64,000 bases of DNA, taken from the NCBI GenBank assembly GCA_002099625.1, contig GCA_002099625.1_4857.1; one strand, given 5' to 3'. This document shows, in pieces, positions 10,230 to 64,000 of the stretch. The translations under genes and the position numbers were made by a program. Position 1 is the first letter of the stretch; the number at the start of each line of letters is the position of its first letter. Source of the stretch: Escherichia coli (lineage in GTDB: Bacteria; Pseudomonadota; Gammaproteobacteria; Enterobacterales; Enterobacteriaceae). Below the pieces are notes generated by a model. That model was not told the DNA's origin. It saw only the letters and a list, made by a program, of their open reading frames with translations, and ran no database searches.

Positions 10230-11906
10230 TTAGTACAACACTGGTGCAGTTTTCTCACCATTGCTCAGAAGCAGATAGGTGTGCTGCGGCAGCTGCATCA
10301 ATACAATTGCATGTGGCACGTTTTCCTGCACAGCTTCGTAGATAGATACAACAGGGTCTGCGGTATTGCCCAAAGACGCTACCGTAACCACATCATGCTT
10401 ATCAACGGAATGGTACATGCCTGGAATTACAATAGTGAACTGGCTCTGAATCAGATTAACTACTTTGCCGGAATCGCTCAGCTTAATAGTCAGTTTGCGC
10501 AGAGAGTTCGCCACCATCAAGAACAGGTCACGGAACCAGTCTTCATATTCACTGACGCCGTTGTCGCCAGCGGTTGCAGTGAACAGATCTTTTACGAAGA
10601 AATCAATATCGCTGATTTTGCGTTCGAAATCGATGGCTTTGAACTTCGGCACATCTTTACCGCGCTTAGTGCCCAGCGACAGCGCATTGTGTACCAAGAA
10701 CGTGATGTTCGCCAGGTACGCATTAGCAAAGCGAGAAATCTCACTGATAACCACTTCTGCTTCGCTGCTGTTCGCAATCGCATAATCGTGCAGTTCTTTC
10801 GTGTTCTTACGCAGTTCATCGATCGTACGTTTCACCTTAGCCATGATAGTTTCAACATCTTCTACCAGCGCCAGGCTGTCGAGATCGGATTTCAACGCGT
10901 CGTGCTTAGCAACAAATTGCTTCATGCGTTCGCACATATCAGTGTTAACACCGACCAGATACGCGCGATAACTATCCCGTGCACGCACAATCAGGTCAGC
11001 CCCGTCGTAGAAAACAACCTCTTCATTACCGTTAAAGATATCTTGCAACGGTGTAGCCCAATCACGCGTTTCCGCGTAAACAGATTGCTTAATGCGACTG
11101 TTAGCTTCCTTCGCTGGAATCGACATTTTAAGCTCGGGGGTTTTCAGCTCGTGAAGTGCGTAGTCTTCCATCAAATCAATCTCCTGCAGAATGTTGTTAA
11201 TTGGGCCATTGGTAGTGTCCTTCTCGGTTTCTTCTGTTGCGCCGAGTGGGGAAAGCACTGGGTTATTAACTGTAGCATTAGACACCGGCATTGGTTGTAC
11301 AGGCACCTGTGCTGGTTCAGGCTGGGGCTGTTGTGCTGTGGCTGGGACTACTTGCGCCGGTTGTGGGTTCAGGATAGGATCACTAACCAGGTTAAGACCT
11401 GCACCGCCAGCAATCACGGTTAGTGCCGCATCCGTGTTACCAATCTTAACGCCACCGGATGGCGCAGAAGACATGGTCAAGCCATCAGTAACACGCACAC
11501 CGCCAGAACTGTTACCGCCCAGTAACCCGCCTGCGTTGCTACCACCACCTAAACCACCACTGCCACCCAAACCGCCGGACTGCTGAGAACGAATTTCGGC
11601 AAGAATCTTACCGACTTGTTCCCAAGCATTAACCAGTTTGGTGTGACGATCGTCGTTATACGCGTCGCCTGCGTTATGCACCTGCTGATAGGCAGCTGCT
11701 TTATACGCATCGACTGCATATGCGATAACCTGTGCTTCACTACCCCCTTTGGATGCTGCCCATGCCGCAACATACGTCGCAATCTTTAACGCCTGATCTG
11801 GCGGAATGCTACGACTACGCATCACGTTATTCAACTGCGACAGTACCGCGTCCTGATCGAGGTGTTTAACGATGACGTTTTTGATTTGTTCAACAGTAAT
11901 GCTCAT
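10230..11906 (-). CDS. hypothetical two-domain protein with internal Gly-rich and Pro/Gln-rich linkers
   Basis: 558-aa ORF; internal SGGLGGSGGLGGGSNAGGLLGGNSSGG followed by PQPAQVVPATAQQPQPEPAQVPVQPMPV; AGGAG RBS upstream. Confidence 0.55.
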   Translation of the reverse strand: MSITVEQIKNVIVKHLDQDAVLSQLNNVMRSRSIPPDQALKIATYVAAWAASKGGSEAQVIAYAVDAYKAAAYQQVHNAGDAYNDDRHTKLVNAWEQVGKILAEIRSQQSGGLGGSGGLGGGSNAGGLLGGNSSGGVRVTDGLTMSSAPSGGVKIGNTDAALTVIAGGAGLNLVSDPILNPQPAQVVPATAQQPQPEPAQVPVQPMPVSNATVNNPVLSPLGATEETEKDTTNGPINNILQEIDLMEDYALHELKTPELKMSIPAKEANSRIKQSVYAETRDWATPLQDIFNGNEEVVFYDGADLIVRARDSYRAYLVGVNTDMCERMKQFVAKHDALKSDLDSLALVEDVETIMAKVKRTIDELRKNTKELHDYAIANSSEAEVVISEISRFANAYLANITFLVHNALSLGTKRGKDVPKFKAIDFERKISDIDFFVKDLFTATAGDNGVSEYEDWFRDLFLMVANSLRKLTIKLSDSGKVVNLIQSQFTIVIPGMYHSVDKHDVVTVASLGNTADPVVSIYEAVQENVPHAIVLMQLPQHTYLLLSNGEKTAPVLY

Positions 11907-11937
11907 TGTAAATAATACTCCTTAAGAGATGTAATAA

Positions 11938-13716
11938 TTAGCGGCCGATTTTAGCAATGTCTTCTTCGGTCGGTCTGATGTACGGGTCCAGTTTAGGATT
12001 CCGCATCATTACCAAACTTGGGTTGGTCTTCATGTACGGGTTGAGGATGTTCGCCTTAAACGGTGCCGACTTAGGAATATAATAGACGTTACCACATTCC
12101 AGATGCGACGCGGATGCGTGCTTAGTACGGTCGTTCAAGTTAACGGTCTTGCCTCCTTTCTTCGAACGCTTAGCATCGGTTTCGGTTTGACCGATGGCGT
12201 GCGTAGACACTGCCAATACCATTGATTCTGTAGAGGCATTGAAGAAACTGATACCGCCGTTGCTCGTAATGGTGCGCATCACCAGATTGAGCACGATCTG
12301 TTTGTTCAGTGCGTCTCGAATAGACTTCGCCGCTGTCTCTGGAGTCCGATGTTCCAACTGCCCCAGCTTCCAACGTATTTTCGAGATCGTTGTGGTAAAG
12401 CCACGTTGGCCCAACAGTAAGTAATCGGTTACCGTGAGACGTTTTCCGTACATAGACGGAATATCATCTTGTTTGGTAAGACGAGTACGCACCATCAGCT
12501 GCGTGGTATACCAGAGGAAATCAAACATATCCAAATCATCAGGGATGGACGGATCGTTTGCCATCAGCTCACCACGGAAGGTGCTGTTGACATAGCGTTC
12601 ACATTCCTGGAAGTGGCTGTCCATACTGCGACTCAGTTCGATATCCGAAGGCTTCAGTCCGCGAATACTGCGGCCCAACACTTCACGCCAAGACGCTGCA
12701 GAGTTGAGGTTTGCAATATCTTCGTCCATTGCCATTTCATTAATCTGTGTAAACAGCCCCGGCAGTGTTGGTGCACGACCGTTCTTACTGTTCTGTTTAC
12801 CTGCGTAATAGTGCGCCGCTTTGAAGAATGCGGCAGTCGCTACCAGCAACAGATGTTCGTTTTGATCCCAACGCCCTGCATCGGTGTTAGGCATATCTTC
12901 ACGTTTAACCAACAGCACGTACTGGATGGTCTTCGCGAGTTGTGGCTCACCGGATTGAATCACCACATACTTCGTTAAGTCCACATCACGTACTTTAATT
13001 GCTGGCCAAATCGCCACATCAACGCCCGCATAACGCTTCACGGCTTGTTTAAAGCCATAACGCCCAAAGAGCCAATACATCAGTGGCTTCTCATCGGTGT
13101 CGTGTCCAATCTGTCCGGTTGAGACAAACAGATTCGATGTACCTGGCAAGAACAGCTGCTCAGGGCGACCATTCACCAGAATCTTCGTTGGTTTCTTACA
13201 GAACTTGATCGACACCTTGCGAGTGAAGTCAAAGTTAATAAAGATACCACCATGCTCACGACATATACCAGGTTGATGGATTACAGGTGCTACGTGGTAC
13301 GTTGTACCATAGTAGTTCATTAAGCCGCCACGACGAATAAACGGCAGGCTCATTGGTCGTTGTACCGGGCGAGGATCACCTGGAACTCGGAACGAGGCCA
13401 TTACCATATACGTGTCAGTGGATGAGATGTTAATAATTGACCGGCCACGATTATTTCGTGAATTGTTATCCGACTTCGATAACTTAAAGATAAAAGCTTC
13501 AAACGGCGACATTTGGCGACAACCTAGTACCGTTAACCCTTCTGGTAATTTCGGGTTATCGATTTCATCATACGTCAACTCACGACGTAGAATGGTTGCC
13601 ACACGATCATGTATCCCATCTTTAGCTTGTGTGTACCCAACTCCTTCTGCAATTGCACGATTAAAAGGCACTATTTCGCCTGCCTCTTTAATCTTCCTAA
13701 TCGCATCTTTAAACAC
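11938..13716 (-). CDS. hypothetical protein (592 aa)
   Basis: Long ORF on coding strand; no motif recognised. Confidence 0.55.
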   Translation of the reverse strand: MFKDAIRKIKEAGEIVPFNRAIAEGVGYTQAKDGIHDRVATILRRELTYDEIDNPKLPEGLTVLGCRQMSPFEAFIFKLSKSDNNSRNNRGRSIINISSTDTYMVMASFRVPGDPRPVQRPMSLPFIRRGGLMNYYGTTYHVAPVIHQPGICREHGGIFINFDFTRKVSIKFCKKPTKILVNGRPEQLFLPGTSNLFVSTGQIGHDTDEKPLMYWLFGRYGFKQAVKRYAGVDVAIWPAIKVRDVDLTKYVVIQSGEPQLAKTIQYVLLVKREDMPNTDAGRWDQNEHLLLVATAAFFKAAHYYAGKQNSKNGRAPTLPGLFTQINEMAMDEDIANLNSAASWREVLGRSIRGLKPSDIELSRSMDSHFQECERYVNSTFRGELMANDPSIPDDLDMFDFLWYTTQLMVRTRLTKQDDIPSMYGKRLTVTDYLLLGQRGFTTTISKIRWKLGQLEHRTPETAAKSIRDALNKQIVLNLVMRTITSNGGISFFNASTESMVLAVSTHAIGQTETDAKRSKKGGKTVNLNDRTKHASASHLECGNVYYIPKSAPFKANILNPYMKTNPSLVMMRNPKLDPYIRPTEEDIAKIGR

Positions 13717-13727
13717 ACCGGCCTCCC

Positions 13728-14732
13728 TCAGAGAATCATCCCAACGAGTGCTACCCCTGCAGCCAAATACGCGGGAATGGATTTCAAGAACTCCGAGCTA
13801 TCTTTTCGCTGATAAGCTCGGGACTCGTATTGGTCTTTACGAACATCGGAACGCAACTTAAGCTCATTCGTCTGGATTGCGTTAAGGGTGTTAATCCTCT
13901 CCTTCTCCAGCGCCAGATTATTAAGTTGCGTACGATAATCGAGGTCTTGCCGATTCTTTTTCTCATCGAGATCTTGCAACTTGGCCTGATACGTGGCTTC
14001 CAGCTTCGCACGAACATCTCGCAACTCTGGAATGTTATCGAGCCACCGATAACGCCTCGCTTCATCTTCAGATGCAAACGCCCGGAACGGGGACATCGGG
14101 TCATCGAAAGCGTACATTATCATCTTACCCCCTTCGACACACTCCGCACCACCGATTACCATGTAAATACCCTCGTCGTAATACTTCGATCGAATCGGTT
14201 CGACTTCCAACATCGTTGTATAGAACCTCAGCCACTTTAAAGGTGCTGGGTCTTCGTACTTCTGCACAACTACCACGCCCAAGGCAAATTCTTTACGATC
14301 CCCTCCAGGCTTACCAATAACCTCAGAATCGAGTTTTACTGGTTGGGTAGAGAAAGCCATTCCTAGCTTCTTCAACACCACCAAGTCGCCTCGCATTAAT
14401 GCACCGATATCATCAACTACATACATCAGCGTTGTTTCGCCGTTCGTAGTTAATTCCTTACATATCTGCGCATACTGCTTTGGCGAATGTGCGTCGCGCA
14501 AACCAGATAGGTTAGCACCGTTCGCAAACACCGTATAGGTCACGTAAATAACAATCCCAAATTCCGCCGCTGTGGTGGACGACGGGGCTAAAACAAAATG
14601 CCCGCCACTGAGTTCAGTGACGTAAATGGGAAACCCGGTATTATTTTCGTACGTGATAGTCTTCGACACGGCACCACGGTGCATGGGCCGCTGGGTTAGC
14701 GTTGGCTGAACGTCTAAATCATAACGGTTCAT
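13728..14732 (-). CDS. hypothetical protein with coiled-coil region and C-terminal transmembrane anchor
   Basis: Track start at 14756 is a TTG; first ATG at 14732 (MNRYDL...). C-terminus ...FLKSIPAYLAAGVALVGMIL is hydrophobic; 15-mer promoter motif lies 39 nt upstream of the ATG. Confidence 0.5.
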   Translation of the reverse strand: MNRYDLDVQPTLTQRPMHRGAVSKTITYENNTGFPIYVTELSGGHFVLAPSSTTAAEFGIVIYVTYTVFANGANLSGLRDAHSPKQYAQICKELTTNGETTLMYVVDDIGALMRGDLVVLKKLGMAFSTQPVKLDSEVIGKPGGDRKEFALGVVVVQKYEDPAPLKWLRFYTTMLEVEPIRSKYYDEGIYMVIGGAECVEGGKMIMYAFDDPMSPFRAFASEDEARRYRWLDNIPELRDVRAKLEATYQAKLQDLDEKKNRQDLDYRTQLNNLALEKERINTLNAIQTNELKLRSDVRKDQYESRAYQRKDSSEFLKSIPAYLAAGVALVGMIL

Positions 14733-14771
14733 TGAGCATCCCAGTAATAATACCAAAAGAATTATTCACGT

Positions 14772-14786
14772 AGATAATATCTATCT
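14772..14786 (-). promoter_or_regulatory. conserved 15-mer AGATAATATCTATCT (copy 1 of 5), putative phage promoter
   Basis: Exact 15-mer shared with four other sites; 39 nt upstream of the ATG of 13728..14732 on the minus strand. Confidence 0.55.
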
Positions 14787-14837
14787 CAGATTACTTTGGG
14801 CACGGGTTCATACCCAGTGCCCGTAACGTAAAAAACT

Positions 14838-15536
14838 TTAGGGTATTAGGCGTTGGGCTATTTCGCGGAGTTGGTCGCGGGTTAAATCAGCCAACTTCTG
14901 GTCGCCGAAGCCCAACTTCAGACCCAGCTCGTATCCAGCTTGCGGATACGTGTTCGTGTTTGCTACTGAGAGGAGTGCATCGGCTATCTTTACCATCGTT
15001 AACTCGAGAGACGCATACGGGGCGGGGATCGGCTGATTCACGATTTGGTAATTATAACGCACTGCGGCGTTATCGTAGTCAAACTCCATCCTTCTGCCGA
15101 GAACGTTAAACGACTCCGCAGAATAACTACCAAATGGGTGATTGGCTTTTTCCCACAAATCTTTCCGTTCAGTAAACCCAGTCGCGAAGTTCTGACGTAT
15201 GGTGTCGAATATTTGCGTTGCCTGGCTAGGGTGTATATTTTTCAGCTCATTGTAGTCGTAGTCGGCGATGGAATATAGAGTGAACACAACACCGTTTATA
15301 TTTAACTGCGGATAATCCATCCGCAGACTATCATCACCTTGTAAATGAAGTTCCCACATCCTCACCCACTGCAATATCGCACTTACCGCATCGTGACTGA
15401 GATAAAAATTAGTAGGTTCTTCAGAATTTTCACGGAAGGGAACAGAGCATTCCGATGCAAAAAAGCCGGCTGCCATAAATCCTCTGCCGTCGAACATAGG
15501 CGCAACTAATCTTGATTTTTCTAAATTGATTACCAT
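14838..15536 (-). CDS. hypothetical protein
   Basis: 232-aa ORF, ATG with AAGGAGA RBS; promoter motif 40 nt upstream, terminator further upstream. Confidence 0.55.
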   Translation of the reverse strand: MVINLEKSRLVAPMFDGRGFMAAGFFASECSVPFRENSEEPTNFYLSHDAVSAILQWVRMWELHLQGDDSLRMDYPQLNINGVVFTLYSIADYDYNELKNIHPSQATQIFDTIRQNFATGFTERKDLWEKANHPFGSYSAESFNVLGRRMEFDYDNAAVRYNYQIVNQPIPAPYASLELTMVKIADALLSVANTNTYPQAGYELGLKLGFGDQKLADLTRDQLREIAQRLIP

Positions 15537-15576
15537 TACTGTCTCCTTAAGTTAAAACCGAACGACTCTCTCCCTA

Positions 15577-15591
15577 AGATAATATCTATCT
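15577..15591 (-). promoter_or_regulatory. conserved 15-mer AGATAATATCTATCT (copy 2 of 5), putative phage promoter
   Basis: Exact 15-mer; sits between the capsid-candidate terminator (15602-15640) and the start of 14838..15536, 40 nt from the ATG. Confidence 0.55.
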
Positions 15592-15601
15592 ATAAATTTT
15601 T

Positions 15602-15640
15602 AGAAAAAAAGAAAAAGCTTACTCCCCGAAGGGAGTAAGC
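15602..15640 (-). terminator. intrinsic terminator downstream of the major capsid candidate
   Basis: Hairpin GCTTACTCCC-cgaa-GGGAGTAAGC (15617-15640) followed on the minus strand by TTTTTCTTTTTTTCT. Confidence 0.7.
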
Positions 15641-15671
15641 TAATCTTAGGCAACGTAATCCTTACGGATTA

Positions 15672-17969
15672 TTAGCCGCCAGCGCCTTCACCGCCAGTAC
15701 CTGGCTGGGTACCGCCGCCAACATCACCAGCATTACCACCGTCAGTACCGCCGGTACCGTTGGAAGTAGTAGTGACGTTGAACGCCAGTTTCTCTTCCAC
15801 GAACTTGGTGATACCTTTAATCCAGATCAGACCAGTGATCGGGCAGTGGCAGATGTGCGCGTTACGAGGCTGTACTGCCAGCTCTTTGCTGGTAGCGCCG
15901 TTACGCTGGATGTTGATGTTGGTTACCATGATCGGAGACCAGAAGTGGTTACCCCAGTTCAGAACACAGTAAGAACCATCATCAGCGGTTGGAACTTTCA
16001 GAACCCACTGCAGGCGGCGAGTCCAGCTGCCGTCAGCTTCGTTCTTCACACGCCAGCGGTCATCGTTGGTGGTGATAACTTCGTACTCGTAGCGATCGCC
16101 CAGCAGACGCTGGTCACCCTGAACCAGCAGCAGCATTGCAGCAGTCGGTTCGTCAGTTGCGATAACAACTTTCGGCAGTGCGTTCGGGTCCGCAGTCAGC
16201 AGGCGCAGAGCCGGCATGAAGCGAGAGTCCTGGATAGCACGAGTTACCTGGTCACCGATACGCTGTACCAGACCCTGACGGGCGTTGATGAGCGCATCTT
16301 TGGTATCCAGAGACTGGATCACTTTGTCCACTTCGTAGTCGCTTTCGCTGTACCACGGAGCAACCCAGTGACGGCCCAGGCCGCGGATAGCAGGTTTGTC
16401 CCACGGAGTGATCATGGACGCAGCTGCGTTCTTAACCGCTTCGGTGTAAGACAGAGTCTGAGTGATAGCCAGCATTTCGTTACGGATGTTAACCGCAGAA
16501 ACGAGGTCGTCCAGACGTTCGGTGTCGTCGTATTCAACGCCAACCGGAGATTTGGTCATGATCGGAGAACCGTACTGCAGTTTGTAGTTCTCTTGTTCCC
16601 AAATCGGGTCGAGCAGAAGGCCCTGGGTTCTCCGGTTCTCGTTGGTACGAGTACCGTCGAAGCGCCAGCCCAGCAGCTCCAGTTTCAGGTTGTCGATGAT
16701 CACTTTACCGGTGCCGCTTTCGATATCAACAGCAGTACCAGTTGCGTCGTACAGACCTTCGATTTCCAGAGACGGTGCAGTCACGTCAACACGACCAGAG
16801 AACTGACCGTTGGTGAACAGAGACATGCTGATGTTCATGGAATAACGAATGGTGTAATCGTTCTGTGCCAGAGCGGCCAGTGCCGGGATTTCAGCACCTT
16901 TCCAGTCCAGAGACTTGGCGTTCAGGGAGAACACGGTGCGACGGAACTGCAGGACCAGCTCACGGCCATCACCTTCAGGAGGACGCTGGAAAGTAGCGAA
17001 CTGCATGTCGCGTACGTTCAGTTTGATCAGCGCACCATCTTTCGCTTCTTCGGTCGGCTTACGCACAGACAGCAGCAGGCTACCCAGCGCCGCACCCGGT
17101 GCGATTTCGTCGGTTTCATCGTAACCTTCCTGCACGATACCCGGATGGGCAGACAGCTGGAACAGGTTCAGACGACGTTCAGAGAAGCTCAGGTAGTTGG
17201 TCGGATACGCCGGCACACGACCCAGCTGAACGTTTTCGTTTTCGATGATGTCTTCGGATACGAAGAACTTCGCGTTCTCGCCGGTTTCCATCACGTAAGG
17301 AACGATACGGATAGCATCGTCCTGCAGGACTTTGTGGTTAGACAGCGCGTTATGCAGCGGCTGACGGTTGTCTTCAACCACGTCTTTGGTCAGCAGGGCG
17401 TTCAGGATACCACGAGTTACAGTAGTAACTTTGGTACGAACGGTGATGCCGACGTCGTTGGTGTCCACAGTGATGGTCGGGAACAGGGTTTCTGCAAACT
17501 TGGATTGAGTTTCCAGAGCACGCACGTTCAGCGTCCAGGTCAGACCCAGGTTTTTGTCCAGGTCTTTGTTGGTGTAGTATTCGGTTGCGACCAGCGGAGT
17601 TTTACCGTAGTCAGCAGCCAGAGATGCTGCACCGGAAATAGCGATCGGCATGTAGCTGGCATATTCCGGCTTCGCGCTCTCAGCAGCAACACGGGTCATG
17701 AAGTCATCTTCGTGACCGGCAGCAGCCAGAATCATCGCAGAAGCAACCTGAGCAGCGTGGCTCATGGTTTTGCCAGGGTTTACAGCTTCGTAGTGCTGCT
17801 GAGCAGTGTCACGCAGGTTGGTGAAGCCGGCAGCATTTTTACGTACAGATTCGCCAACGGCTACGGTTTGCCATACGTCATTAGCGGAAGAGCCTGCCTT
17901 GGCAGCAGCGACCAGAGCATTGCCCTGCTGAACCAGCTGGTCCAGACTAGCGATACGGGTATCTTTCAT
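15672..17969 (-). CDS. putative major capsid protein (765 aa) with Ala-rich propeptide-like N-terminus and Gly-rich C-terminal tail; tail sheath is the alternative
   Basis: Strongly host-like codon bias (CTG, CGT, GGT, AAC dominate), own strong terminator, size in the range of phiKZ-type capsid proteins; N-terminal ~130 aa contain several S/A/G-x-E sites (AGHE, VGE, VATE). No homology search done. Confidence 0.45.
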   Translation of the reverse strand: MKDTRIASLDQLVQQGNALVAAAKAGSSANDVWQTVAVGESVRKNAAGFTNLRDTAQQHYEAVNPGKTMSHAAQVASAMILAAAGHEDDFMTRVAAESAKPEYASYMPIAISGAASLAADYGKTPLVATEYYTNKDLDKNLGLTWTLNVRALETQSKFAETLFPTITVDTNDVGITVRTKVTTVTRGILNALLTKDVVEDNRQPLHNALSNHKVLQDDAIRIVPYVMETGENAKFFVSEDIIENENVQLGRVPAYPTNYLSFSERRLNLFQLSAHPGIVQEGYDETDEIAPGAALGSLLLSVRKPTEEAKDGALIKLNVRDMQFATFQRPPEGDGRELVLQFRRTVFSLNAKSLDWKGAEIPALAALAQNDYTIRYSMNISMSLFTNGQFSGRVDVTAPSLEIEGLYDATGTAVDIESGTGKVIIDNLKLELLGWRFDGTRTNENRRTQGLLLDPIWEQENYKLQYGSPIMTKSPVGVEYDDTERLDDLVSAVNIRNEMLAITQTLSYTEAVKNAAASMITPWDKPAIRGLGRHWVAPWYSESDYEVDKVIQSLDTKDALINARQGLVQRIGDQVTRAIQDSRFMPALRLLTADPNALPKVVIATDEPTAAMLLLVQGDQRLLGDRYEYEVITTNDDRWRVKNEADGSWTRRLQWVLKVPTADDGSYCVLNWGNHFWSPIMVTNINIQRNGATSKELAVQPRNAHICHCPITGLIWIKGITKFVEEKLAFNVTTTSNGTGGTDGGNAGDVGGGTQPGTGGEGAGG

Positions 17970-17981
17970 TTCAAGTTTACC

Positions 17982-18506
17982 TTATTTAGATAAATGACAT
18001 GCGTACAACTGCGTCAGCACTTCGTGCGCAGCAAACTGCGTCGACGTACTGAACGTATCATCCACGACACGAGTCTTGGGACGCATATATTTAAAAAGTT
18101 CTGCGCAGAACATCTTTTTCGCAGCGTGGTCTTCACTTAAAGAAAAACCCGGTCCGGATTTAGCTTCTGCAAAAGACGCCACAACAACATCGCCACGTTG
18201 TGAGAACACCCAACGTAAACGACCGTCGAATGATTCCCCATATAAATCAGCAAGGGTTTCATTCGTACCTTTCTCAACCAGGTTTAAGACCTGGTCATAA
18301 TAAAGAGTCGGAAGTGCAGGTGGTGCCATAATCGATTTATAAATCGAAATAGGGTCACTCACTGGCAGTATGATGGAACTAAAGCCCGACGAGCAGTCAT
18401 ATAACCAGTTAAAGAAGCTTGCTTGGAGTTCCTCCAACTTTTTAACGCCAGCCCCTTTATCTATGTTAGATTGAACTTCCCACGGTGGACTAAAACGAAT
18501 TTGCAT
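17982..18506 (-). CDS. hypothetical protein
   Basis: Track ORF extends to 18560 and overlaps the divergent plus gene; the ATG at 18506 (MQIRFSPPWEV...) with GGAG about 10 nt upstream is the likelier start. Confidence 0.45.
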   Translation of the reverse strand: MQIRFSPPWEVQSNIDKGAGVKKLEELQASFFNWLYDCSSGFSSIILPVSDPISIYKSIMAPPALPTLYYDQVLNLVEKGTNETLADLYGESFDGRLRWVFSQRGDVVVASFAEAKSGPGFSLSEDHAAKKMFCAELFKYMRPKTRVVDDTFSTSTQFAAHEVLTQLYACHLSK

Positions 18507-18520
18507 TTTAAGGATGCTCC

Positions 18521-20083: not shown

Positions 20084-20216
20084 CGAACACTGGGGAGCTT
20101 AGGCTCCCCTACGGGCAGTTTATGCGTCCTGCCAAGATCAAAAAAAAATACGACGAACTATTTATATGCATGGAATTACCCGAGTGTTCCAGCACTCGGG
20201 TAAGAGTTATTTCATG

Positions 20217-20363: not shown

Positions 20364-20476
20364 GTAGTGCCTCCTTAGGCAGGTTGTTAATATATCGCTG
20401 CGCTGTGGTGGTACACAATGCACCGATATACTGTCACGGGAGTTAAAAGGGGTGCTCGAACACCCCTGGTTAGTGT

Positions 20477-20632: not shown

Positions 20633-20648
20633 AAGTGGATGTGAATAA

Positions 20649-20688: not shown

Positions 20689-20690
20689 GG

Positions 20691-21596: not shown

Positions 21597-21599
21597 TTT

Positions 21600-31238: not shown

Positions 31239-32498
31239 TTACTTAGACTTTTCATACGCACCGATACCAGCGCTGATGTAGCCGTTAACGCCGGCGATCA
31301 GGTTTTTCTGGCCAGTTGCAACGCAACGTTCGGTCCAGGAGATGTACTGGTTCGCAACGGTGATTGCACGACGCGCAACACGGACGTTGGAAGTCAGTTC
31401 AGCATTGTCATCGATCTTCACGCCGTCGATACGTTTCAGCAGCGCCTCAATAGCCCGCTCGTACGATTCTTGAGCCTGGTTATTTTTGTGGTACGCTTTC
31501 ACGTTCTCTTCGACTGCTTTACCCAGCTGGTTGAAGAACGCAACCAGAGAAGACAGCGTCTGAGCAGACGGAGTAGAAACAGATTTTTCTACGCTGCCTT
31601 CAGCATCGATAACGGTGAAGGAAGCTTCCAGGTCATCCCCGTTCACTTTCACGTCAGCTTTACCGATCTGGTTACCCAGCAGTTGAACTTCGCCCGCTTT
31701 GCCTGCAGTGGCTTTGTTAACCGCTGCTGCGAAGCCGCTGTTCAGTTTGCCGCCTTCAACTGCGCTGACCATGCTGGTTGCAGCTTTGACCACTGCATCC
31801 TGCTCGCCGTAGATGCTGCCGATAGTAGACAGAACACCTTTCAGTGCATTGATGTCGTCACCAACAAACTTACCACCGGTGGTCAGGTTCTTAATGAACC
31901 CACCGCTAATGGTGTCTTTCTTCTGCTTGCCCAGGCCACGCAGAGCCGCGTCATATTTCTTAGCGCGCGCCTGAATGGATTTACCCTGGTTGCTGAACTT
32001 GAGCCAGCGATCTTTGATTTTACGGCCTTGTTCTTTCAGCCAGTCGAAGATACGCTGCAGGAACGCTTTGATGTCGTCCCACAGTGATTCGCGAGCAACC
32101 TGACGGCGTTTACGTGCGCCGTAAGATTCCTGCGCAACGCTTACGCGGTGATCAAATGCCCAACGTTTACGGATAGATTCCTGCGCAACGTCCAGCTGCT
32201 CAGCAGCTTCGTCAGGCATATCTTCTTCCACTTCCATTGGCTCTTCGCCATCTTCGCCTTCACCGTCAGCGGCGGCTTCAGCAGCATCAACTGCATCCAG
32301 CTGTGCATCAGTTTCGTCACCGTCTTCTGCCAGCACGTCTGCTTCTGCGTCCAGCTGGTCGATCGGTTTGGTGTCATGCTCGATGTCAGCCAGAGTACCT
32401 TCCACGGACTCAGCCGGCAGCTCGATACCATCTGGAACGACAGTGCCTGCGCCTTCGACAGATTCACGAGCGAGTTTACTTTTTACAAAGTTTGCCAT
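31239..32498 (-). CDS. abundant alpha-helical Ala/Lys-rich protein, tandem paralogue A (419 aa); candidate internal head or scaffold-like virion protein
   Basis: Strong codon bias; N-terminal 15 aa (MANFVKSKLARESVE) and C-terminal AGIGAYEKSK identical to the neighbouring gene; acidic N-terminal ~105 aa ending VAQE then basic SIRKRWA. Confidence 0.6.
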   Translation of the reverse strand: MANFVKSKLARESVEGAGTVVPDGIELPAESVEGTLADIEHDTKPIDQLDAEADVLAEDGDETDAQLDAVDAAEAAADGEGEDGEEPMEVEEDMPDEAAEQLDVAQESIRKRWAFDHRVSVAQESYGARKRRQVARESLWDDIKAFLQRIFDWLKEQGRKIKDRWLKFSNQGKSIQARAKKYDAALRGLGKQKKDTISGGFIKNLTTGGKFVGDDINALKGVLSTIGSIYGEQDAVVKAATSMVSAVEGGKLNSGFAAAVNKATAGKAGEVQLLGNQIGKADVKVNGDDLEASFTVIDAEGSVEKSVSTPSAQTLSSLVAFFNQLGKAVEENVKAYHKNNQAQESYERAIEALLKRIDGVKIDDNAELTSNVRVARRAITVANQYISWTERCVATGQKNLIAGVNGYISAGIGAYEKSK

Positions 32499-54056: not shown

Positions 54057-54070
54057 GCTGCCCCTCTTCG

Positions 54071-54099
54071 CACAAAAAAAGAGGGGCGCAAGGCCCCTC
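54071..54099 (-). terminator. intrinsic terminator downstream of 54103..56208, overlapping the helicase RBS
   Basis: Hairpin GAGGGGC-gcaa-GGCCCCTC (54081-54099) followed on the minus strand by TTTTTTTGTG; the downstream CGAAGAGGGG can alternatively pair with the 3' arm. Confidence 0.55.
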
Positions 54100-54102
54100 G
54101 GT

Positions 54103-58445: not shown

Positions 58446-58475
58446 TCGTAAATGCTCCTTTTGGTTACCTCGGTA

Positions 58476-58490
58476 AGATAATATCTATCT
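58476..58490 (-). promoter_or_regulatory. conserved 15-mer AGATAATATCTATCT (copy 3 of 5), in a 66-bp divergent intergenic region
   Basis: Exact 15-mer; 30 nt from the minus-strand ATG at 58445 and 21 nt from the plus-strand ATG at 58512, so it could serve either gene. Confidence 0.55.
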
Positions 58491-58511
58491 GTTTTATTTT
58501 AAGGAGAGACG

Positions 58512-58835
58512 ATGCTAGATAAATTTGCTACCTTATCCGAAATAATACCTTCGCCTGATTCGACCAAGTATAAGGTGTTGCATGACTATACAGACTTCCT
58601 TCGCAAACACCCAGATACTACAGAAGAAGTTGTTGACCCAAAATATGCCTACCCAGAGGTACACAGTTTCTACGCGTACTGTCGTCTCAAACAGTACGAT
58701 AATAGTATTATTTATCCGATGATGTTAATGAACGGAATTTCTACTCCGTTTGATTTCACGCCAGAGATAAGGACCTTATTGGTTCCTAGTGTCGGTGTGG
58801 TAAGTAACATCTTATCGACTATCGTAGAATCTTGA
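58512..58835 (+). CDS. hypothetical small protein (107 aa), visibly more AT-rich than its neighbours
   Basis: ATG with AAGGAGAG RBS; lone plus-strand gene; lower GC and different codon usage by eye. Confidence 0.5.
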   Translation: MLDKFATLSEIIPSPDSTKYKVLHDYTDFLRKHPDTTEEVVDPKYAYPEVHSFYAYCRLKQYDNSIIYPMMLMNGISTPFDFTPEIRTLLVPSVGVVSNILSTIVES

Positions 58836-58866
58836 AAAAAAGAAGGGACGCCCAGTCCCTTCTTTC
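58834..58866. terminator. terminator hairpin between convergent genes
   Basis: Hairpin GAAGGGAC-gccca-GTCCCTTC (58842-58862) with an A-run upstream (U-tract for the minus strand) and a weak TTTCT downstream. Confidence 0.5.
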
Positions 58867-58872
58867 TAACGC

Positions 58873-60240
58873 TTAACGTAAATTAGCTGATGAGAATGGT
58901 AGGTTGCCTAAACTGCTGCTACTTCCGCCACCTAAACCACCCAGACCACCTAACACGTCACTACTCCCTCCTAAGAGGTTGGTGCTACCGCCGCCCAACT
59001 GCGTGCTACCCCCCAAGAGATTATTACTACTTCCCAGCAAACCAGAACCCAGACCACTTTCTTTCGTCACCGCATTACCACGCAGCGCCTCACCGAGAGA
59101 CAGTTCTTTAATTGTCCCTTTCGGTAAATGGCCGTTGTTCTCACGCAGCGCTTCCTGAATCTTCGGTGCTAACGCATTGAAGCTATTAGCTGAAGACGCC
59201 TGTTGCGCTTTCTTCGCACGGAAATAGTTTACCGGATCGTTGAGATCAAGATTTTCCTGCGGAGCTTGTTGAGAAGCTAAAGCAACGACCGGCTTTGTGC
59301 CGGCAGGTGTACGCCCGATACGGAAATCCGTTGCGGTGGTGTCTGTTGCCTGATCGGTGCGTGGGCCGGTATTATACGGCAGAGTTTGGATAACGTTATC
59401 ATAAACGCTCATGTTATCCAGTTGGCCAATCCATTCTTCTTCTAACGGACGCAGTGGAGTGTGGTCACGCAGACCACGAACCACTTGATTGTAGTTGGTC
59501 ACGTATTGTGCCCAACCGCGTGCCAAAGAACCGAAGTACGGACGCGGATCGTTAGAACCCGTAACCGAAGGATACCAACCAAACACTGCAGTGAGCAGGT
59601 TAAAGATAATGACCTTATCCTGCTTACGCTGGAGCTTGGCACCGAAGAATGTTGCCGTACCATCCAGCGACTCTTCTTCAAACATGTGTTTGTAGTTCGC
59701 CACACGGATATATTTGATACCTTCAATGGTCATATCGCTGGAGATGAAGATACTGGTGATCTTTGTCTTTTTATCTTCTTCCAGCAACCCGTAAACGTAG
59801 TTCTTCACTGCGTGCCAGCTCTGAACCAGTTTCTTATCCATCGTTGGATCTTTCAGGTCAGCACAAACCACATCGCTTAAAAACTTCTTGTACGCTGCCA
59901 GACGGATATTTTTTCCTTCGGCTGCTGTTTCCAAAATCGCATCGATTAACTCGAAGCTTTTCAGGAAGAGGTTCGCGTTGATGGCTTTCTTCAGGAAACG
60001 AATCGTTCCAGATTCGCCAGCCAGTACCGATTCACACAGTGGGTGGAACGCATGACATTCACTACCTTCGTCATCTTCCAACCCACGCTTAATCATCGCT
60101 GCAGTTGGAAGCACCAAGCGGCGCTTCACTTTGTTGTAGGTGAACATTGCCGGATGACCATCATCGATAGTCAGCATGTCACCTTCGAATCCGTATCCGA
60201 GCGAGGTCAGAAACGAACGGTAGAATTCAATCAATTTCAT
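58873..60240 (-). CDS. hypothetical protein with Gly/Leu/Ser-rich low-complexity C-terminal tail (455 aa)
   Basis: C-terminal ~60 aa GLGSGLLGSSNNLLGGSTQLGGGSTNLLGGSSDVLGGLGGLGGGSSSSLGNL... Confidence 0.55.
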   Translation of the reverse strand: MKLIEFYRSFLTSLGYGFEGDMLTIDDGHPAMFTYNKVKRRLVLPTAAMIKRGLEDDEGSECHAFHPLCESVLAGESGTIRFLKKAINANLFLKSFELIDAILETAAEGKNIRLAAYKKFLSDVVCADLKDPTMDKKLVQSWHAVKNYVYGLLEEDKKTKITSIFISSDMTIEGIKYIRVANYKHMFEEESLDGTATFFGAKLQRKQDKVIIFNLLTAVFGWYPSVTGSNDPRPYFGSLARGWAQYVTNYNQVVRGLRDHTPLRPLEEEWIGQLDNMSVYDNVIQTLPYNTGPRTDQATDTTATDFRIGRTPAGTKPVVALASQQAPQENLDLNDPVNYFRAKKAQQASSANSFNALAPKIQEALRENNGHLPKGTIKELSLGEALRGNAVTKESGLGSGLLGSSNNLLGGSTQLGGGSTNLLGGSSDVLGGLGGLGGGSSSSLGNLPFSSANLR

Positions 60241-60252
60241 GGTTAATAATCC

Positions 60253-61953
60253 TTAATCAATGAGACCGTTGCCGAGTCCGTTTCCGCCTATACCGCCTAA
60301 GCCACCACCCAGGTCAAGACCTCCAAGAGGATCTAAGCCACCTGTGTTAGTTGGAATGTTAGATAGCATTCGACCCCGGCCTTGGCCTTTCTCGAATTCT
60401 GTATAACCTTCTTCCACGGCTTTCAACAGCGTTGCGGTGTTCTGTGCCAGCTCACCAACGTATTTGAGATCGGTGGTGTTGCCGGTATGGAGACGGAATT
60501 GCATAAACGACGCGTAGGTGTAATATTCCAGCGGTTCGTCGTCGACACGGATTTCAATACGAGTAACGGTCCCCAACAATGCGGTGACCAGCATGTGGCA
60601 GCGAATATGGTTATGTTTAGTAACCTGAACCATCGCTTCTTTCATGTTCTGCAAGAAACGACGACCTAATGCAGCAGGTAACTGATGGTGCGTGATGCTG
60701 CTGACTGAGTTAGGAATAACTTCCAACGTAGGCTCTATCATGATATCTGTGTTGCGGTTATCAAAGACAAAGCTCACTTCACCAATCAGGTTACGTGACA
60801 TAATCGGCCCGATAGACATAGCCAGATCATACGCAACTAGACTACCCTGCGTGGAGAAGCCATTACGTCCAATCCAGTGGTCGGTTTGGTTAACCAGCCC
60901 TGCACCCAACCCACGGCGACTTGCCAGCGCCAGCGATTCACGGATACATTCATCCAACCGCATTGGGTTGACAATCGCATTACGCAAATCAGCCAAACGG
61001 AACGTCGCCTTACTGGTTGCTTTCCAACCGCCAGATACATCAGACATCCCGTTCTGGAGTGCTTGACGCATCGCAGCAATCAGTTCGTGGTTGCTGTAGT
61101 TACGGATAACACCACGCTGCTTCAATTCAGATTCAACGCCGATGGAGTTATTACCTGCAAAGAAGCTTTCCACGCTACCGAGTTCGGTATCTACCCCAGA
61201 GCTTGCCAGATACGCATTACTGATGGCAGATACGTAGTTTTCTGGACGCTGGAGTTGGGATACCATCAACTGTGGTGCAGAGCTACTGGTTGCGGATAGC
61301 ACAGAGTCGCTCGTTGGGACGAACTTCTCACCGCTATTCATTTCAATACGTTTTACCATGTCCGCTGCTTTCGCGATCGAAATGATATCTACCGTACTTT
61401 CTGTTTGACCTTCAACAGACAGCGCTTTCGATAAAACGTAGTTATCCAGTAGACGGAATGAGTCTGGGTTCAATGTTTTGCCGCCCAGGGCATCGTGTGT
61501 ATACGTTGCCTGTAAGCCGTAGATGTCGTTAATGTACAACACCATATCGTCCGGCAGCAGGCTACCCAGGCTGGTTTCTGCCTGACTGGTATAACCGGAT
61601 ACGATGTATTGCGTTTCCTGAGTGCGTGTTGCATTCAGAGGTTTAGCAATAAACACCGCCACGAAGTTAAAGATACCGGTATCACGTGATTCCCATTGGA
61701 ACTGTACAGGACGATTGTCATCATCGGACACGTTGATGAATGGACGCTCAAAACCATTCTGGGTGCCATCGAAGCCCACGATGGCAGATAATGCTTCTTG
61801 ATACTGCTGTGTTCCCACAGCTTTTTCCCCGCCCAGTTCAACCGCTGCTGCTAAGTCATCCAGTGCACCCGTCGATGCGTTAAAGCCGATGCGGCGACGA
61901 ACTTGCTCTGGAACATCGTAGACCGGATACATCAGTAGATTTACAAGCTGCAT
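60253..61953 (-). CDS. hypothetical protein with Gly/Leu-rich C-terminal tail (566 aa)
   Basis: C-terminus GGLDPLGGLDLGGGLGGIGGNGLGNGLID; adjacent to another Gly-tailed protein. Confidence 0.55.
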   Translation of the reverse strand: MQLVNLLMYPVYDVPEQVRRRIGFNASTGALDDLAAAVELGGEKAVGTQQYQEALSAIVGFDGTQNGFERPFINVSDDDNRPVQFQWESRDTGIFNFVAVFIAKPLNATRTQETQYIVSGYTSQAETSLGSLLPDDMVLYINDIYGLQATYTHDALGGKTLNPDSFRLLDNYVLSKALSVEGQTESTVDIISIAKAADMVKRIEMNSGEKFVPTSDSVLSATSSSAPQLMVSQLQRPENYVSAISNAYLASSGVDTELGSVESFFAGNNSIGVESELKQRGVIRNYSNHELIAAMRQALQNGMSDVSGGWKATSKATFRLADLRNAIVNPMRLDECIRESLALASRRGLGAGLVNQTDHWIGRNGFSTQGSLVAYDLAMSIGPIMSRNLIGEVSFVFDNRNTDIMIEPTLEVIPNSVSSITHHQLPAALGRRFLQNMKEAMVQVTKHNHIRCHMLVTALLGTVTRIEIRVDDEPLEYYTYASFMQFRLHTGNTTDLKYVGELAQNTATLLKAVEEGYTEFEKGQGRGRMLSNIPTNTGGLDPLGGLDLGGGLGGIGGNGLGNGLID

Positions 61954-61965
61954 TTTAAATACTCC

Positions 61966-63600
61966 TTAAGAATTAAACCATTCAACTTCTTCTAACTTGC
62001 GACGTGCATTCAACACCATAAACTCCGCCAGGCTATTGTGCAGTGACAAGTGAGGTATATAGTTTGGCTGATCCGTCTCACACTTCAGCAGCGCAGCTGC
62101 TTCTGGTGTAGCCCTGAGATGGAACAGATACGGGTTGATGTGATCCTTGTGTAACAAGGTCAGTGATTCCCGTGGTGTAGATTGCGGTTCGAGATTACGC
62201 GGGTTGCGATACTCCTGAAGATAATATCTATCTAAATCTGCTTTGAGTTCAGATCGAATTGGGTCGGCTGCATAACCGGCAGACATCTCAGAACGCACCA
62301 TATTGCAACTTAACAGTTGCGCAACGTCATACATTCCATAATTGAGATAAGTTGCCTGTGCCAACGCCATACCGTAGCGAAACGCTTCTGGCCCACATTC
62401 AGTATACGTCTTATAATGCGCGCTACGATGGAGTGCTAATGCGACTAACCATTCGTGCAACGTATAGACAGGACCGTCATGTGTTGCCAGTTGCGAATCA
62501 ATCAATAACTTAACATCTGCTGGAGCGGCATTATCCAGACGCATTGTTTTCAAGAAAGAGCGGTATTCTTTAAATACGTACTCGGTACGGACGTATTCTT
62601 TCATCTGTGCAGGAGAACGTGCCTGCACCAAATCCATGGCGTTTATCTTACCCTTTTCGCCATTGAATACCACACTTTCCGGATGCGCTTTTAACAGCAC
62701 CGGCTGGTTAGAGATTTTGTTTGCAAAACCTGTTTCAATCTCTTGTTTAACCAGAAAATACATGCCGGTGACGATATTGTTGTTAACCATGATTTCAACC
62801 GGTAATTCACCACCGACTTCACGGACAGCCAACAATTTAATAATAGCATACGCCAGGATATAATCTTCCATCATATCCGTGCCATAGCCCCGCACCGTAG
62901 CCAGTACCGACAAACTGGTGCTGTTCGTACCTTTGTTTGCCAGTTCTTTTTCTACCTTTTCCATCACTGTCTGTAGGAACCCACGCAGTTTCGGAATAGC
63001 AGGTAAAGACATGACTTCCGTGTCTTGAAGCATCTCCAGACAGTATGTCAGATTGTACACCATTTTCCGGTGTGTTTCGATTGGCAAGTTCTTACCTATC
63101 GGGAACGTCCCCATGGTGAGGAACACCGGAATATACGGTTTAATCATCAGAACCAGTATCAACAACTCGTAATAGTCCGGACGAATGTACGTCATCGCTT
63201 CCGGATAATTACTGTTCATTTCATCGTGCGTATCTTCCATGTTCTGCGGAATCCACAGCTTATCGATGGGATACAGCTTACGATACACTTCGGCCTTGTG
63301 GAACTTCGCAATCGTCTGCACAATCTTCGGCATGTGCTTACGCTGCGTTTCCGTCGATTCGTTTGCCAGCTCGTCCAGCATCAGATACGCCATGAACAGT
63401 TCATCTTGTTCGTCTGGCGTTAAATAATCCCACACGCGTTGTAATTCCATGAAGAGAATGTTGTCGCGTGCAATCTGTTTACCTTTAACAGTGATGTAGT
63501 CGGGTGCGTTGTTATCCTTCCGATAACGTAAGCCAATAAATGTGACCTCTTGACCGTGATGCTCGATTGTCATCCGGTCTTTAATCTTCGTAATTTTCAT
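61966..63600 (-). CDS. hypothetical protein (544 aa)
   Basis: ATG with GGAG RBS; promoter 15-mer 34 nt upstream; one further 15-mer copy is embedded in its 3' coding region. Confidence 0.55.
   Translation of the reverse strand: MKITKIKDRMTIEHHGQEVTFIGLRYRKDNNAPDYITVKGKQIARDNILFMELQRVWDYLTPDEQDELFMAYLMLDELANESTETQRKHMPKIVQTIAKFHKAEVYRKLYPIDKLWIPQNMEDTHDEMNSNYPEAMTYIRPDYYELLILVLMIKPYIPVFLTMGTFPIGKNLPIETHRKMVYNLTYCLEMLQDTEVMSLPAIPKLRGFLQTVMEKVEKELANKGTNSTSLSVLATVRGYGTDMMEDYILAYAIIKLLAVREVGGELPVEIMVNNNIVTGMYFLVKQEIETGFANKISNQPVLLKAHPESVVFNGEKGKINAMDLVQARSPAQMKEYVRTEYVFKEYRSFLKTMRLDNAAPADVKLLIDSQLATHDGPVYTLHEWLVALALHRSAHYKTYTECGPEAFRYGMALAQATYLNYGMYDVAQLLSCNMVRSEMSAGYAADPIRSELKADLDRYYLQEYRNPRNLEPQSTPRESLTLLHKDHINPYLFHLRATPEAAALLKCETDQPNYIPHLSLHNSLAEFMVLNARRKLEEVEWFNS
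62219..62233 (-). promoter_or_regulatory. conserved 15-mer AGATAATATCTATCT (copy 4 of 5), embedded in coding sequence
   Basis: Exact 15-mer inside 61966..63600 (encoding DRYYLQ), about 265 nt upstream of the start of 60253..61953; candidate internal promoter. Confidence 0.4.
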
Positions 63601-63634
63601 TATAGTTGAACTCCGCGAATAGTCGATTGCACTG

Positions 63635-63649
63635 AGATAATATCTATCT
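63635..63649 (-). promoter_or_regulatory. conserved 15-mer AGATAATATCTATCT (copy 5 of 5), putative phage promoter
   Basis: Exact 15-mer 34 nt upstream of the ATG at 63600. Confidence 0.55.
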
Positions 63650-63696
63650 CAATCTTCTTACAGTGTGTGTTGCAGGACCACGCATAAGCGTTAATA

Positions 63697-63735
63697 GCCC
63701 AAGGTTTCCCTTGGGCGTATTTTTTATTTTGTTTC
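63697..63735 (+). terminator. hairpin plus T-tract oriented for the plus strand, located just past the stop of a minus-strand gene
   Basis: GCCCAAGG-tttc-CCTTGGGC (63697-63716) followed on the plus strand by GTATTTTTTATTTTGTTTC; on the minus strand it is preceded by an A-tract and lacks a U-tract. Confidence 0.45.
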
Positions 63736-64000
63736 TTAGAGGAATTCGTCGTAAGAATCAGTGGTTGCTGGAGGTGCAGATTGTTGCTGTTGATAACCGC
63801 CGCTACGCTGACCGCCACCCTGGCCACCGCCGTATCCGCCACGACCGAAGCTACCACCACCTTGCTGGAATTCACGCGGCTTATATTTCTCTTCCAGGTT
63901 CTGTAAGAACTTCTCGAAGTTAGTGATAAACGCACGTGCACAGCGCTCAGCAAGTTCTAAATCAGAAACCTGCTGGCCGTCGCGGAAAATACGGAAACCT
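63736..64000 (-). CDS. protein with Gly/Gln-rich RGG/YGG-type tail and acidic C-terminal tip (N-terminus outside window)
   Basis: Frame read by hand: ...NLEEKYKPREFQQGGGSFGRGGYGGGQGGGQRSGGYQQQQSAPPATTDSYDEFL-stop. Differs from the track ORF 63600..63953, which runs across the promoter and hairpin in another frame. Confidence 0.45.
   Translation of the reverse strand, partial: GFRIFRDGQQVSDLELAERCARAFITNFEKFLQNLEEKYKPREFQQGGGSFGRGGYGGGQGGGQRSGGYQQQQSAPPATTDSYDEFL

Follow-up and report, generated by a model that had tools for sequence, protein, structure and literature searches.

Why do six otherwise unrelated proteins, encoded within a single stretch of phage DNA, carry segments extremely rich in glycine, some of them acidic, and do these segments serve one common purpose? 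The question is raised by 64,000 nucleotides deposited under Escherichia coli (assembly GCA_002099625.1), referred to below, at its full length, as the window. A sequence-only reading of it had proposed that the six proteins share a property, such as a flexible tether or a common interaction partner. By nucleotide comparison, the window is a ~99% match to the Salmonella jumbo phage SPN3US (genus Seoulvirus; family Chimalliviridae, the nucleus-forming phages) and represents the reverse complement of roughly SPN3US 24-88 kb; its capsid gene shows 99.0-99.9% DNA identity to SPN3US and its close relatives. The gene numbers of the flagged proteins (gp) are those of the SPN3US GenBank annotation. 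The answer that we arrived at is a divided one. A shared property is supported for three of the proteins, gp31 (the import factor PicA), gp32 and gp78, whose segments use the same motif within a given phage, change in concert between phages and are kept at the level of protein. It is not supported for all six, as the segments of gp29 (ChmC), gp75 (the major capsid protein, MCP) and gp81 (the portal) differ from this trio in behaviour or chemistry.

All six segments were found in the translations exactly where they had been described. In the portal gp81, the C-terminal 82 amino acids (aa) consist of 28% Gly and include 25 Asp/Glu with no Lys or Arg at all, and the final 33 aa of gp75 are 45% Gly. 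Leucine accompanies glycine in gp32 (final 68 aa: 29% Gly, 14 Leu) and gp31 (final 37 aa: 38% Gly, 8 Leu), the segment of gp78 is internal (residues 105-146, 38% Gly), and gp29, present as a partial gene (63736-63999, -), encodes a protein that ends in ...GGGSFGRGGYGGGQGGGQRSGGYQQQQSAPPATTDSYDEFL. Gly counts are distributed bimodally, with a peak per 25 aa of 12-15 in the six flagged proteins and of at most 7 in all other open reading frames (ORFs) of the window. We then scanned 236 of the 240 kb of SPN3US, assembled into 264 ORFs, and at least 12 Gly per 25 aa occurred in the same six proteins only, the runners-up reaching 11 and 10. Shuffling of residues within proteins gave a mean of 0.02 proteins at 12 Gly per 25 aa, so that the observed six are far beyond chance, and the claim that such a number is unusual was well founded. 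All extreme Gly-rich segments of the SPN3US genome fall inside 58 kb. Two details of the earlier description needed correction: gp29, counted there among large proteins, is only 217 aa at full length, and the interval given for the observation began at 10230, thus omitting the portal gene (6756-9500) that it cites.

What are these proteins? Pfam recognised the capsid protein alone and returned no family for gp29, gp31, gp32 or gp78, which PHROGs assigned only to families of unknown function. Gene order was more informative. A block consisting of SbcD, a hypothetical protein, a ~250-aa protein, two proteins of ~520-560 aa, one of ~400-510 aa, a small gene on the opposite strand and two large genes of the non-virion RNA polymerase (nvRNAP) was compared in phiKZ-like, Vibrio, Salmonella SA002, Erwinia RAY, Xanthomonas, Klebsiella Eowyn, Psa21, PS119XW and Goslar genomes, and its order was identical in all of them. 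In phiKZ, gp67 is ChmC/Imp6, an RNA-binding protein of the Whirly fold (PMC11077065), gp68 is a sigma-like RNA polymerase subunit (phiKZ numbering: PMC12571901), and gp69 is PicA/Imp1, an essential and selective nuclear import factor; the numbering of the ChmC position in the block agrees with the ORF labels of Eowyn and with PMC12571901. In phiPA3, gp61 is ChmC, gp63 is PicA and gp64 is the gp70 homologue, and all three are found at the nuclear shell (PMC10245766). On the shell, PicA/Imp1 is seen as one or two puncta, and it is a binding partner of Imp6 (that is, ChmC), its puncta or import role having been reported for phiKZ, phiPA3, 201phi2-1 and Goslar, i.e., for relatives of SPN3US.

Profile-profile comparison by hhalign linked gp29 to the phiKZ gp67 group (98.8%, E = 8e-17, 161 columns, clade alignment against distant-phage alignment), gp31 to distant PicA proteins including phiKZ-like ones (98.7%, E = 3e-16, 472 columns) and gp32, which lies directly after PicA, to the phiKZ gp70 group (99.9%, E = 6e-35). 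For gp31, blastp and tblastn by themselves failed to reach phiKZ; with gp32, tblastn also reached phiKZ-like phages. The neighbouring gp30, with a maximum of 3 Gly per 25 aa, matched the protein at the phiKZ-like gp68 position in blastp (4.8e-13). Moreover, the 557-aa phiKZ-like protein at the gp31 position reads HWGGADHHTVA at residues 359-369, which fits the published PicA mutant positions H359 to A369. Synteny, the names used in the literature, this match of mutant positions and the profile homology together identify gp29 as ChmC, gp30 as the sigma-like subunit, gp31 as PicA and gp32 as the gp70-like protein, all by comparison of sequences. Counting genes back from the RNA polymerase would instead make gp32 PicA; this assignment was dropped, since ChmC is the ~250-aa protein and the PicA mutant positions fit the 557-aa one. 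We also considered gp29 as a single-stranded DNA-binding protein (SSB), as its tip DSYDEFL is SSB-like, but it belongs to the Whirly-fold ChmC family and Pfam gave no OB-fold match. A fold search of the gp32 model against the PDB returned no match (best E = 0.27).

The fourth early protein, gp78, lies elsewhere, directly after the nvRNAP beta-N gene and between the capsid and portal genes (MCP-x-nvRNAP beta-N-gp78-...-portal), which is the position of phiKZ gp124, Goslar gp38, RAY gp4 and their equivalents. It also has the architecture of gp124-like proteins, i.e., an N-terminal domain, a low-complexity (LC) linker and a C-terminal domain. Comparison with the gp124 family by hhalign gave a weak match over 136 C-terminal columns (63%, E = 7e-5), and blastp gave nothing meaningful. 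As far as gene position and architecture can tell, gp78 is thus the positional orthologue of phiKZ gp124. Its linker has a Gly/Leu part (coded at 11469-11594) and a Pro/Gln part (coded at ~11247-11381). Because gp78 alone as a query for related loci returned SPN3US only, the capsid protein was used as query instead. In SPN3US, gp29 and gp78 are both essential and absent from the virion, and in the gp78 amber mutant 78(am3) late proteins are undetectable (PMC5105663); knock-down of phiKZ124 strongly disturbs phage transcription (PMC12571901). The possibility that gp78 is chimallin (ChmA) was ruled out, as ChmA sits between the DNA polymerase and RNA polymerase beta genes, outside the window. 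In SPN3US, ChmA is probably gp22 (15768-17621, +; annotated as hypothetical), because this gene is flanked by a DNA polymerase gene and by gp23, which encodes RNA polymerase beta, an arrangement also seen in Goslar and CR5.

The next question was whether the segments are a stable property of these proteins. The sequence-only reading had named non-conservation of the tails as an outcome that would speak against it, and the opposite was found. Using two gene blocks from 12 and 18 IMG/VR relatives, together with 28 further gp32 clusters, we observed the LC segment at the same place in every orthologue of these sets, down to ~25-40% identity, despite faster divergence of the segments themselves: segment identity was 18-46%, as compared to 45-86% in the folded domains (in gp32, 18-46% and 45-66%). 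The segments are thus a case of conserved disorder with flexible sequence. All six are intrinsically disordered LC regions, and the disorder prediction that had been suggested as a check agrees for the two proteins for which AlphaFold2 (AF2) models are cited. In the gp32 model, residues 1-285 are predicted with pLDDT 85-98 and residues 387-455 with ~30; in the gp78 model (mean 43.5), residues 1-110 are predicted to be helical with pLDDT 70-80, and residues 111-232 fall to 20-30.

Some further features of the tails deserve mention. Many gp32 homologues have an aromatic C-terminus after the LC tail (...GGFRW, ...DGFHW, ...SFKW, ...GGFTW, ...SFNY, ...WGLGI), which looks like a conserved anchor residue, whereas gp32 of the window ends in ...SSANLR (58873-58890). 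Between the window and the SPN3US reference, which are more than 98% identical, amino-acid differences pile up in the tails. In the portal, roughly 12 of the ~17 differences, counted by eye, belong to the 82-residue tail. An inserted Ala and an Asp/Asn change mark the tail of the capsid protein, and that of ChmC is shorter by one Gly.

By composition, the six segments split into three functionally separate classes. The first comprises the early non-virion proteins of the phage nucleus and gene expression, gp29, gp31, gp32 and gp78. Within it, the segments of gp31, gp32 and gp78 are nearly uncharged (net -3, 0 and +1) and built of Gly/Ser/Asn/Thr with 5-14 Leu. The ChmC tail has a different appearance, being composed of Gly/Gln/Tyr with two Arg and the acidic tip, and its layout, an Asn/Gly-rich stretch containing aromatic residues and then a short Ser/Asp/Glu tip, recurs in 12 clade and 8 distant orthologues. 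Deletion of the C-terminal region of phiPA3 ChmC abolishes RNA condensates in vitro (PMC11077065). The ChmC tail is thus a separate module driving RNA condensates, and as such it has already been published.

The second class is the portal tail. In phmmer, gp81 matches the phiKZ portal (9xpe) with E = 6e-48, in an alignment that extends into the tail; for Goslar gp36 the E value is 2e-26. The tail, made of Gly/Asp/Glu/Thr with a net charge of -25, is of the same kind in phiKZ gp129, Goslar gp36, the Vibrio phage and all clade relatives, so that, at the level of sequence, it is a polyanionic brush conserved across Chimalliviridae. In the Goslar portal, the crown domain is given as residues 778-923 of 969, and the remaining ~46 residues, the acidic part, lie beyond that description. 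By homology with portals of known structure, the tail follows the C-terminal crown domain and would thus lie inside the head, where it might repel DNA or hold basic internal proteins.

The capsid tail forms the third class. Pfam identifies gp75 as the MCP (PF25620, PhiKZ_MCP; E = 8e-226, 751.6 bits against a cut-off of 27, residues 72-725), and the Gly-rich tail is outside the model. Alignments with the capsid structures of Goslar and phiKZ reach only as far as residue ~733 of gp75, near where those two chains finish, and the tail beyond it is thus an extension specific to the SPN3US-like clade. It is composed of Gly/Thr/Ala without Leu, Phe or Met, present but variable in 18 of 18 clade relatives, and absent in phiKZ and Goslar. 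It is probably a clade-specific, passive and flexible appendage free of hydrophobic stickers. The SPN3US proteomics papers treat only the N-terminal propeptides of gp75 and gp81. Opposite the capsid gene, on the other strand (15846-17993, +), lies an ORF of 715 aa, in the part of the window with the highest G+C content (0.546 at 16001-18000); most likely it is merely the shadow of a gene with strong codon bias.

The trio of PicA, gp32 and gp78 shows a pattern of its own. In SPN3US and phiEaH2-like phages, all three proteins carry GGL/LLGG, and in Wellington-like phages LLGG; in a metagenomic sister group, SFG/GFG repeats take their place in all three. Among the CR5/Derbicus/Phobos phages, gp32 and gp78 bear [S/N]NPF repeats and PicA bears FSFG. 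Leu versus Phe counts are concordant across the three proteins in 10 of 10 clade phages, and three further metagenomic contigs, all Leu-type, agree with motif sharing but have little power. In the complete CR5 genome, NPF occurs 14 times in 70,929 aa, 8 of these in the gp32 and gp78 orthologues and at most once per protein elsewhere; in the gp32 orthologue the NPF spacing is exactly nine residues. More distant phages follow the same rule with other chemistries: both gp70-like and gp124-like proteins of phiKZ and RAY have Met/Gln/Pro-rich segments, and in Vibrio phage pVp-JHP1101 the tails of the gp70-like protein and PicA, as well as the linker of the gp124-like protein, are all made of Arg/Asp/Ser repeats (RRDDRRSSRRDDRR...). 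These Vibrio repeats resemble eukaryotic RS/RD domains and are a charged version of otherwise uncharged segments.

We asked whether the matching holds statistically. To avoid bias, the lowest-entropy 40-residue window of each protein was taken, and similarity within the same phage was compared with that between phages by permutation. Gp70-like and gp124-like proteins (12 lineages) scored 0.54 within a phage and 0.34 between phages (p = 4e-4), gp70-like proteins and PicA 0.54 and 0.36 (p = 3e-5), and gp124-like proteins and PicA 0.47 and 0.41 (p = 0.04). ChmC, used as a negative control, showed no same-phage excess with either gp70-like or gp124-like proteins (p = 0.8-0.9). In addition, PicA and the gp70-like protein share their C-terminal end, LGLV in PS119XW and FNY in one metagenomic contig, and across 19 lineages their last five residues match more than expected (p = 0.003), which modestly favours a shared pocket. 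Genome-wide compositional bias was ruled out as the source of these flavours, as the proteome compositions of SPN3US and CR5 are the same.

What might such matching achieve? In the mechanism that we propose, the segments of PicA, gp32 and gp78 would present hydrophobic stickers, Leu in this phage, along Gly/Ser/Asn spacers, and would bind either one another, by weak multivalent like-with-like cohesion, or one common phage-encoded receptor. Such binding would bring the three proteins together in one place, in all likelihood the one or two PicA puncta on the nuclear shell. We give this sticker-and-spacer gathering about an even chance. A common partner or mutual cohesion is supported for the trio only, because only there is the motif shared per phage and co-varying. 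What the sequences show is who the proteins are, that disorder is predicted, that the segments are conserved, that the motif is shared and co-varies, and that selection acts on the protein; physical binding, the site of action and any role in transport are inferred. The identities of the proteins and the division into three classes stand much firmer than the mechanism.

Several observations weigh against this proposal. Imp1 of phiKZ failed to co-purify with gp70 from E. coli, which makes a strong binary PicA-gp70 complex less likely, in phiKZ at any rate and outside infection. At 37-68 aa, the segments are far below the length of known phase-forming cohesive domains. The permutation tests ignore phylogeny, and there are ~five independent flavours, each matched in two or three proteins; the matching is weak in Goslar and Eowyn, and the PicA proteins of RAY, SA002, Eowyn and Goslar lack an LC tail, so that the part of PicA in the scheme is limited to certain lineages. 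The orthology of gp78 and gp124, as described above, rests on synteny, architecture and a weak profile match. Finally, phiKZ gp124 is cited in one paper as a binder of host DnaX and FtsZ, which would point to a host-directed role.

A bolder version of the same proposal is that the tails of PicA and of the gp70-like and gp124-like proteins form a small cohesive phase that may bind the import/export hub of the phage nucleus together and perhaps confer selectivity on it. It would be a convergent miniature of the FG-nucleoporin barrier, whose chemistry (Leu, Phe, NPF, Met/Gln, Arg/Asp) could drift freely provided that all partners change together. We consider this unlikely. Should it be true, drift of tail chemistry could stop the transport machineries of co-infecting phages from mixing.

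Among the alternatives to gathering by mutual or common-partner binding, the simplest is that the segments are a neutral by-product, with replication slippage or compositional drift accumulating in unstructured termini and linkers that tolerate it, so that they are harmless and nothing more. On one hand, their faster divergence than that of the folded domains, their variable lengths, and the small indels and clustered substitutions seen even against the SPN3US reference are what such drift would leave behind. On the other hand, the segments keep the same position in every orthologue, they are limited to 6 of 264 proteins, and Tandem Repeats Finder detected no tandem repeats in the tail-coding DNA, while periodic motifs such as NPF every nine residues are written in different codons. 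A peptide that is kept unchanged through synonymous substitutions, described below for RAY, and the loss of condensates in vitro upon removal of the ChmC tail also speak against neutrality, which we thus regard as improbable.

A second alternative is concerted evolution, that is, gene conversion or duplication between LC-coding stretches of one genome, without any shared binding function. Identical or nearly identical peptides do occur in different proteins of one phage, such as ASNNNPF in CR5 or the 15-mer YPQQGMYPQQQMMQP of Erwinia phage RAY, which is the same in the gp70-like tail (L038:6489-8033) and the gp124-like N-terminus (L055:2926-5409); GGTGGTTTAGGTGG is common to gp32 and gp78, and the repetitive GGT-rich DNA could promote exchange. 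However, the longest exact nucleotide matches between tail-coding regions of different genes are at most 14 nt in the window and merely 12-17 nt in CR5, RAY, the Vibrio phage and phiKZ, and the codons of the NPF repeats are varied. The two RAY stretches that encode the 15-mer disagree at 7 of their 45 nt, in each case synonymously; the peptide is therefore under purifying selection, however it came about. DNA exchange could account for the origin of a motif, but not for its retention, and we consider it unlikely as the whole explanation; the shared motifs, as far as coding sequences can tell, are kept at the protein level however they arose.

A third alternative retains the common partner but takes it from the host. 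Candidates would be a protease adaptor, a chaperone, the typical clients of which include hydrophobic Gly-rich peptides, or DnaX/FtsZ: early phiKZ proteins, gp124 being one of them, are cited in one paper as binders of DnaX and FtsZ. The motif flavour, though, does not track the host. Phages of Erwinia amylovora alone display four types (GGL, LLGG, NPF and Met/Tyr/Pro/Gln), and Salmonella phages two (GGL in SPN3US, Met/Gln/Pro in SA002). This makes self-association, or a partner encoded by the phage, likelier than a host partner, to which we would assign a low probability.

The weakest alternative is one property of all six segments, namely the same partner or the same tether acting during assembly at the shell, where capsids dock; although the phiPA3 portal is found at the nuclear shell and binds ChmB, and the confinement of every extreme Gly-rich segment to 58 kb would suit it, we hold it to be highly improbable, as the chemistry differs (a polyanionic portal tail, an MCP tail free of hydrophobics, an uncharged trio with Leu stickers), ChmC does not co-vary in composition with the others, the MCP tail is missing from phiKZ and Goslar, and the face docking at the shell would be the clip side.

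The features discussed here and their neighbours are collected in Table 1. The small gene gp33 has the same place and orientation, between the gp70-like and RNA polymerase genes, in all chimallivirus loci that we examined, including the three metagenomic contigs. The sole sizeable tandem repeat of the window found by Tandem Repeats Finder is located in coding DNA at 32124-32191 (26-bp unit, 2.7 copies, 66% matches). Outside the window, SPN3US (143413-144220, -) and CR5 (136233-137038, -) each have two adjacent small ORFs consisting of nearly nothing but Cys/Gly/Ser/Thr repeats (CSGGCSSSCTGNC...), a pair that is thus kept between the two phages.

Table 1. Genes of the window that encode the low-complexity segments, with neighbouring genes used for orientation.
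Gene	Product or homologue	Position	Strand	Remarks
gp81	portal	6756-9500	+	tail residues 833-914 coded 9252-9497
gp78	positional orthologue of phiKZ gp124 / Goslar gp38	10230-11906	-	linker residues ~105-232 coded 11211-11594
	synteny anchor for gp78; tblastn matches to phiKZ gp123, Goslar gp39 and others	11938-13716	-	identified in PMC5105663
gp75	major capsid protein	15672-17969	-	tail residues 733-765 coded 15675-15773
gp33	small gene, 107 aa	58512-58835	+	context; annotation tables
gp32	phiKZ gp70 / phiPA3 gp64 homologue	58873-60240	-	Gly/Ser/Leu tail, residues 388-455, coded 58876-59079
gp31	PicA/Imp1	60253-61953	-	profile homology and synteny
gp30	phiKZ gp68 homologue, sigma-like subunit of nvRNAP	61966-63600	-	context; no LC tail
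gp29	ChmC/Imp6, 3' part of gene	63736-64000 (read in frame 63736-63999)	-	tail and acidic tip coded ~63739-63873

Why does this matter? For nucleus-forming phages, the foremost open problem is how proteins and mRNA get through the chimallin shell, and a 2025 review names the mechanism of shell crossing as a direction for future research. PicA/Imp1, ChmC/Imp6 and phiPA3 gp64 have already been placed at the shell; the motif adds gp78, a protein not yet linked to it. The co-varying motif names three proteins and pinpoints the residues to mutate, thus offering a cheap and falsifiable handle, and it predicts that tails of different flavour are unable to replace one another. An amber-mutant system of SPN3US already exists, with gp29 and gp78 mutants among those available. 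Even if the binding inference is wrong, six look-alike tails have been sorted into three classes and a family-wide polyanionic tail of the portal has been recorded.

How does this arrangement compare with known systems? Assembly through LC regions or short linear motifs (SLiMs) is known, and so is the ChmC tail; the co-varying motif shared by PicA, gp32 and gp78 appears to be undescribed, the papers of the searched library that join the phage nucleus with the nucleoporin treating no such tails. Gp29 fits ChmC/Imp6 (phiPA3 gp61, phiKZ gp67, Goslar gp176) by its place in the block, its profile homology of 98.8% and the published layout of the tail; it differs in that the SPN3US-clade tail is richer in Gly/Gln/Tyr and has RGG-like Arg, and the window holds only the 3' end of the gene. 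Gp31 is a member of the PicA/Imp1 family (phiKZ gp69) by synteny and the profile homology over 472 columns. Published PicA import is selective and acts via surfaces of the folded domain, and the protein forms puncta on the shell. A C-terminal LC tail is not described in the PicA paper, the Imp1 preprint or the 2025 review. Only in the SPN3US-like clade is this tail of the Gly/Leu (or FG) type; the phiKZ tail is Gln/Pro-rich, and RAY, Goslar and Eowyn have none. Gp81 is a homologue of the phage portals with disordered C-termini (phiKZ gp129, Goslar gp36), and its Gly/Asp/Glu-rich tail is common to phiKZ, Goslar, the Vibrio phage and the clade; in the portal structure papers searched, no function is assigned to the acidic tail.

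Outside phages, the four [S/N]NPF motifs in each of two unrelated proteins of the CR5 group recall the NPF peptides bound by EH domains in eukaryotic endocytosis, a likeness that is formal only. The exact 15-mer of RAY and the LGLV and FNY ends resemble SLiM repeats in which several ligands compete for one pocket of a folded receptor, which here would be putative. The closest parallel in design is to the FG nucleoporins, and it is an analogy of design, not of membership, with the phage side known from sequence. There is no homology, the phage segments measure 37, 42 and 68 aa where nucleoporin domains run to hundreds of residues, Leu serves as the sticker in this phage (Phe occurs 0-1 times), and other phage lineages use Met/Gln or Arg/Asp. 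FG nucleoporins are anchored in a pore, form a selective barrier and work with transport receptors, whereas the chimallin shell has no defined pore. Still, both are disordered, with nearly uncharged Gly/Ser/Asn/Thr/Gln spacers, regularly spaced hydrophobic stickers and compatible motifs on different proteins; in both, the stickers are on proteins tied to selective transport into a DNA compartment, and in a sister lineage of this phage they take the form of SFG/GFG repeats.

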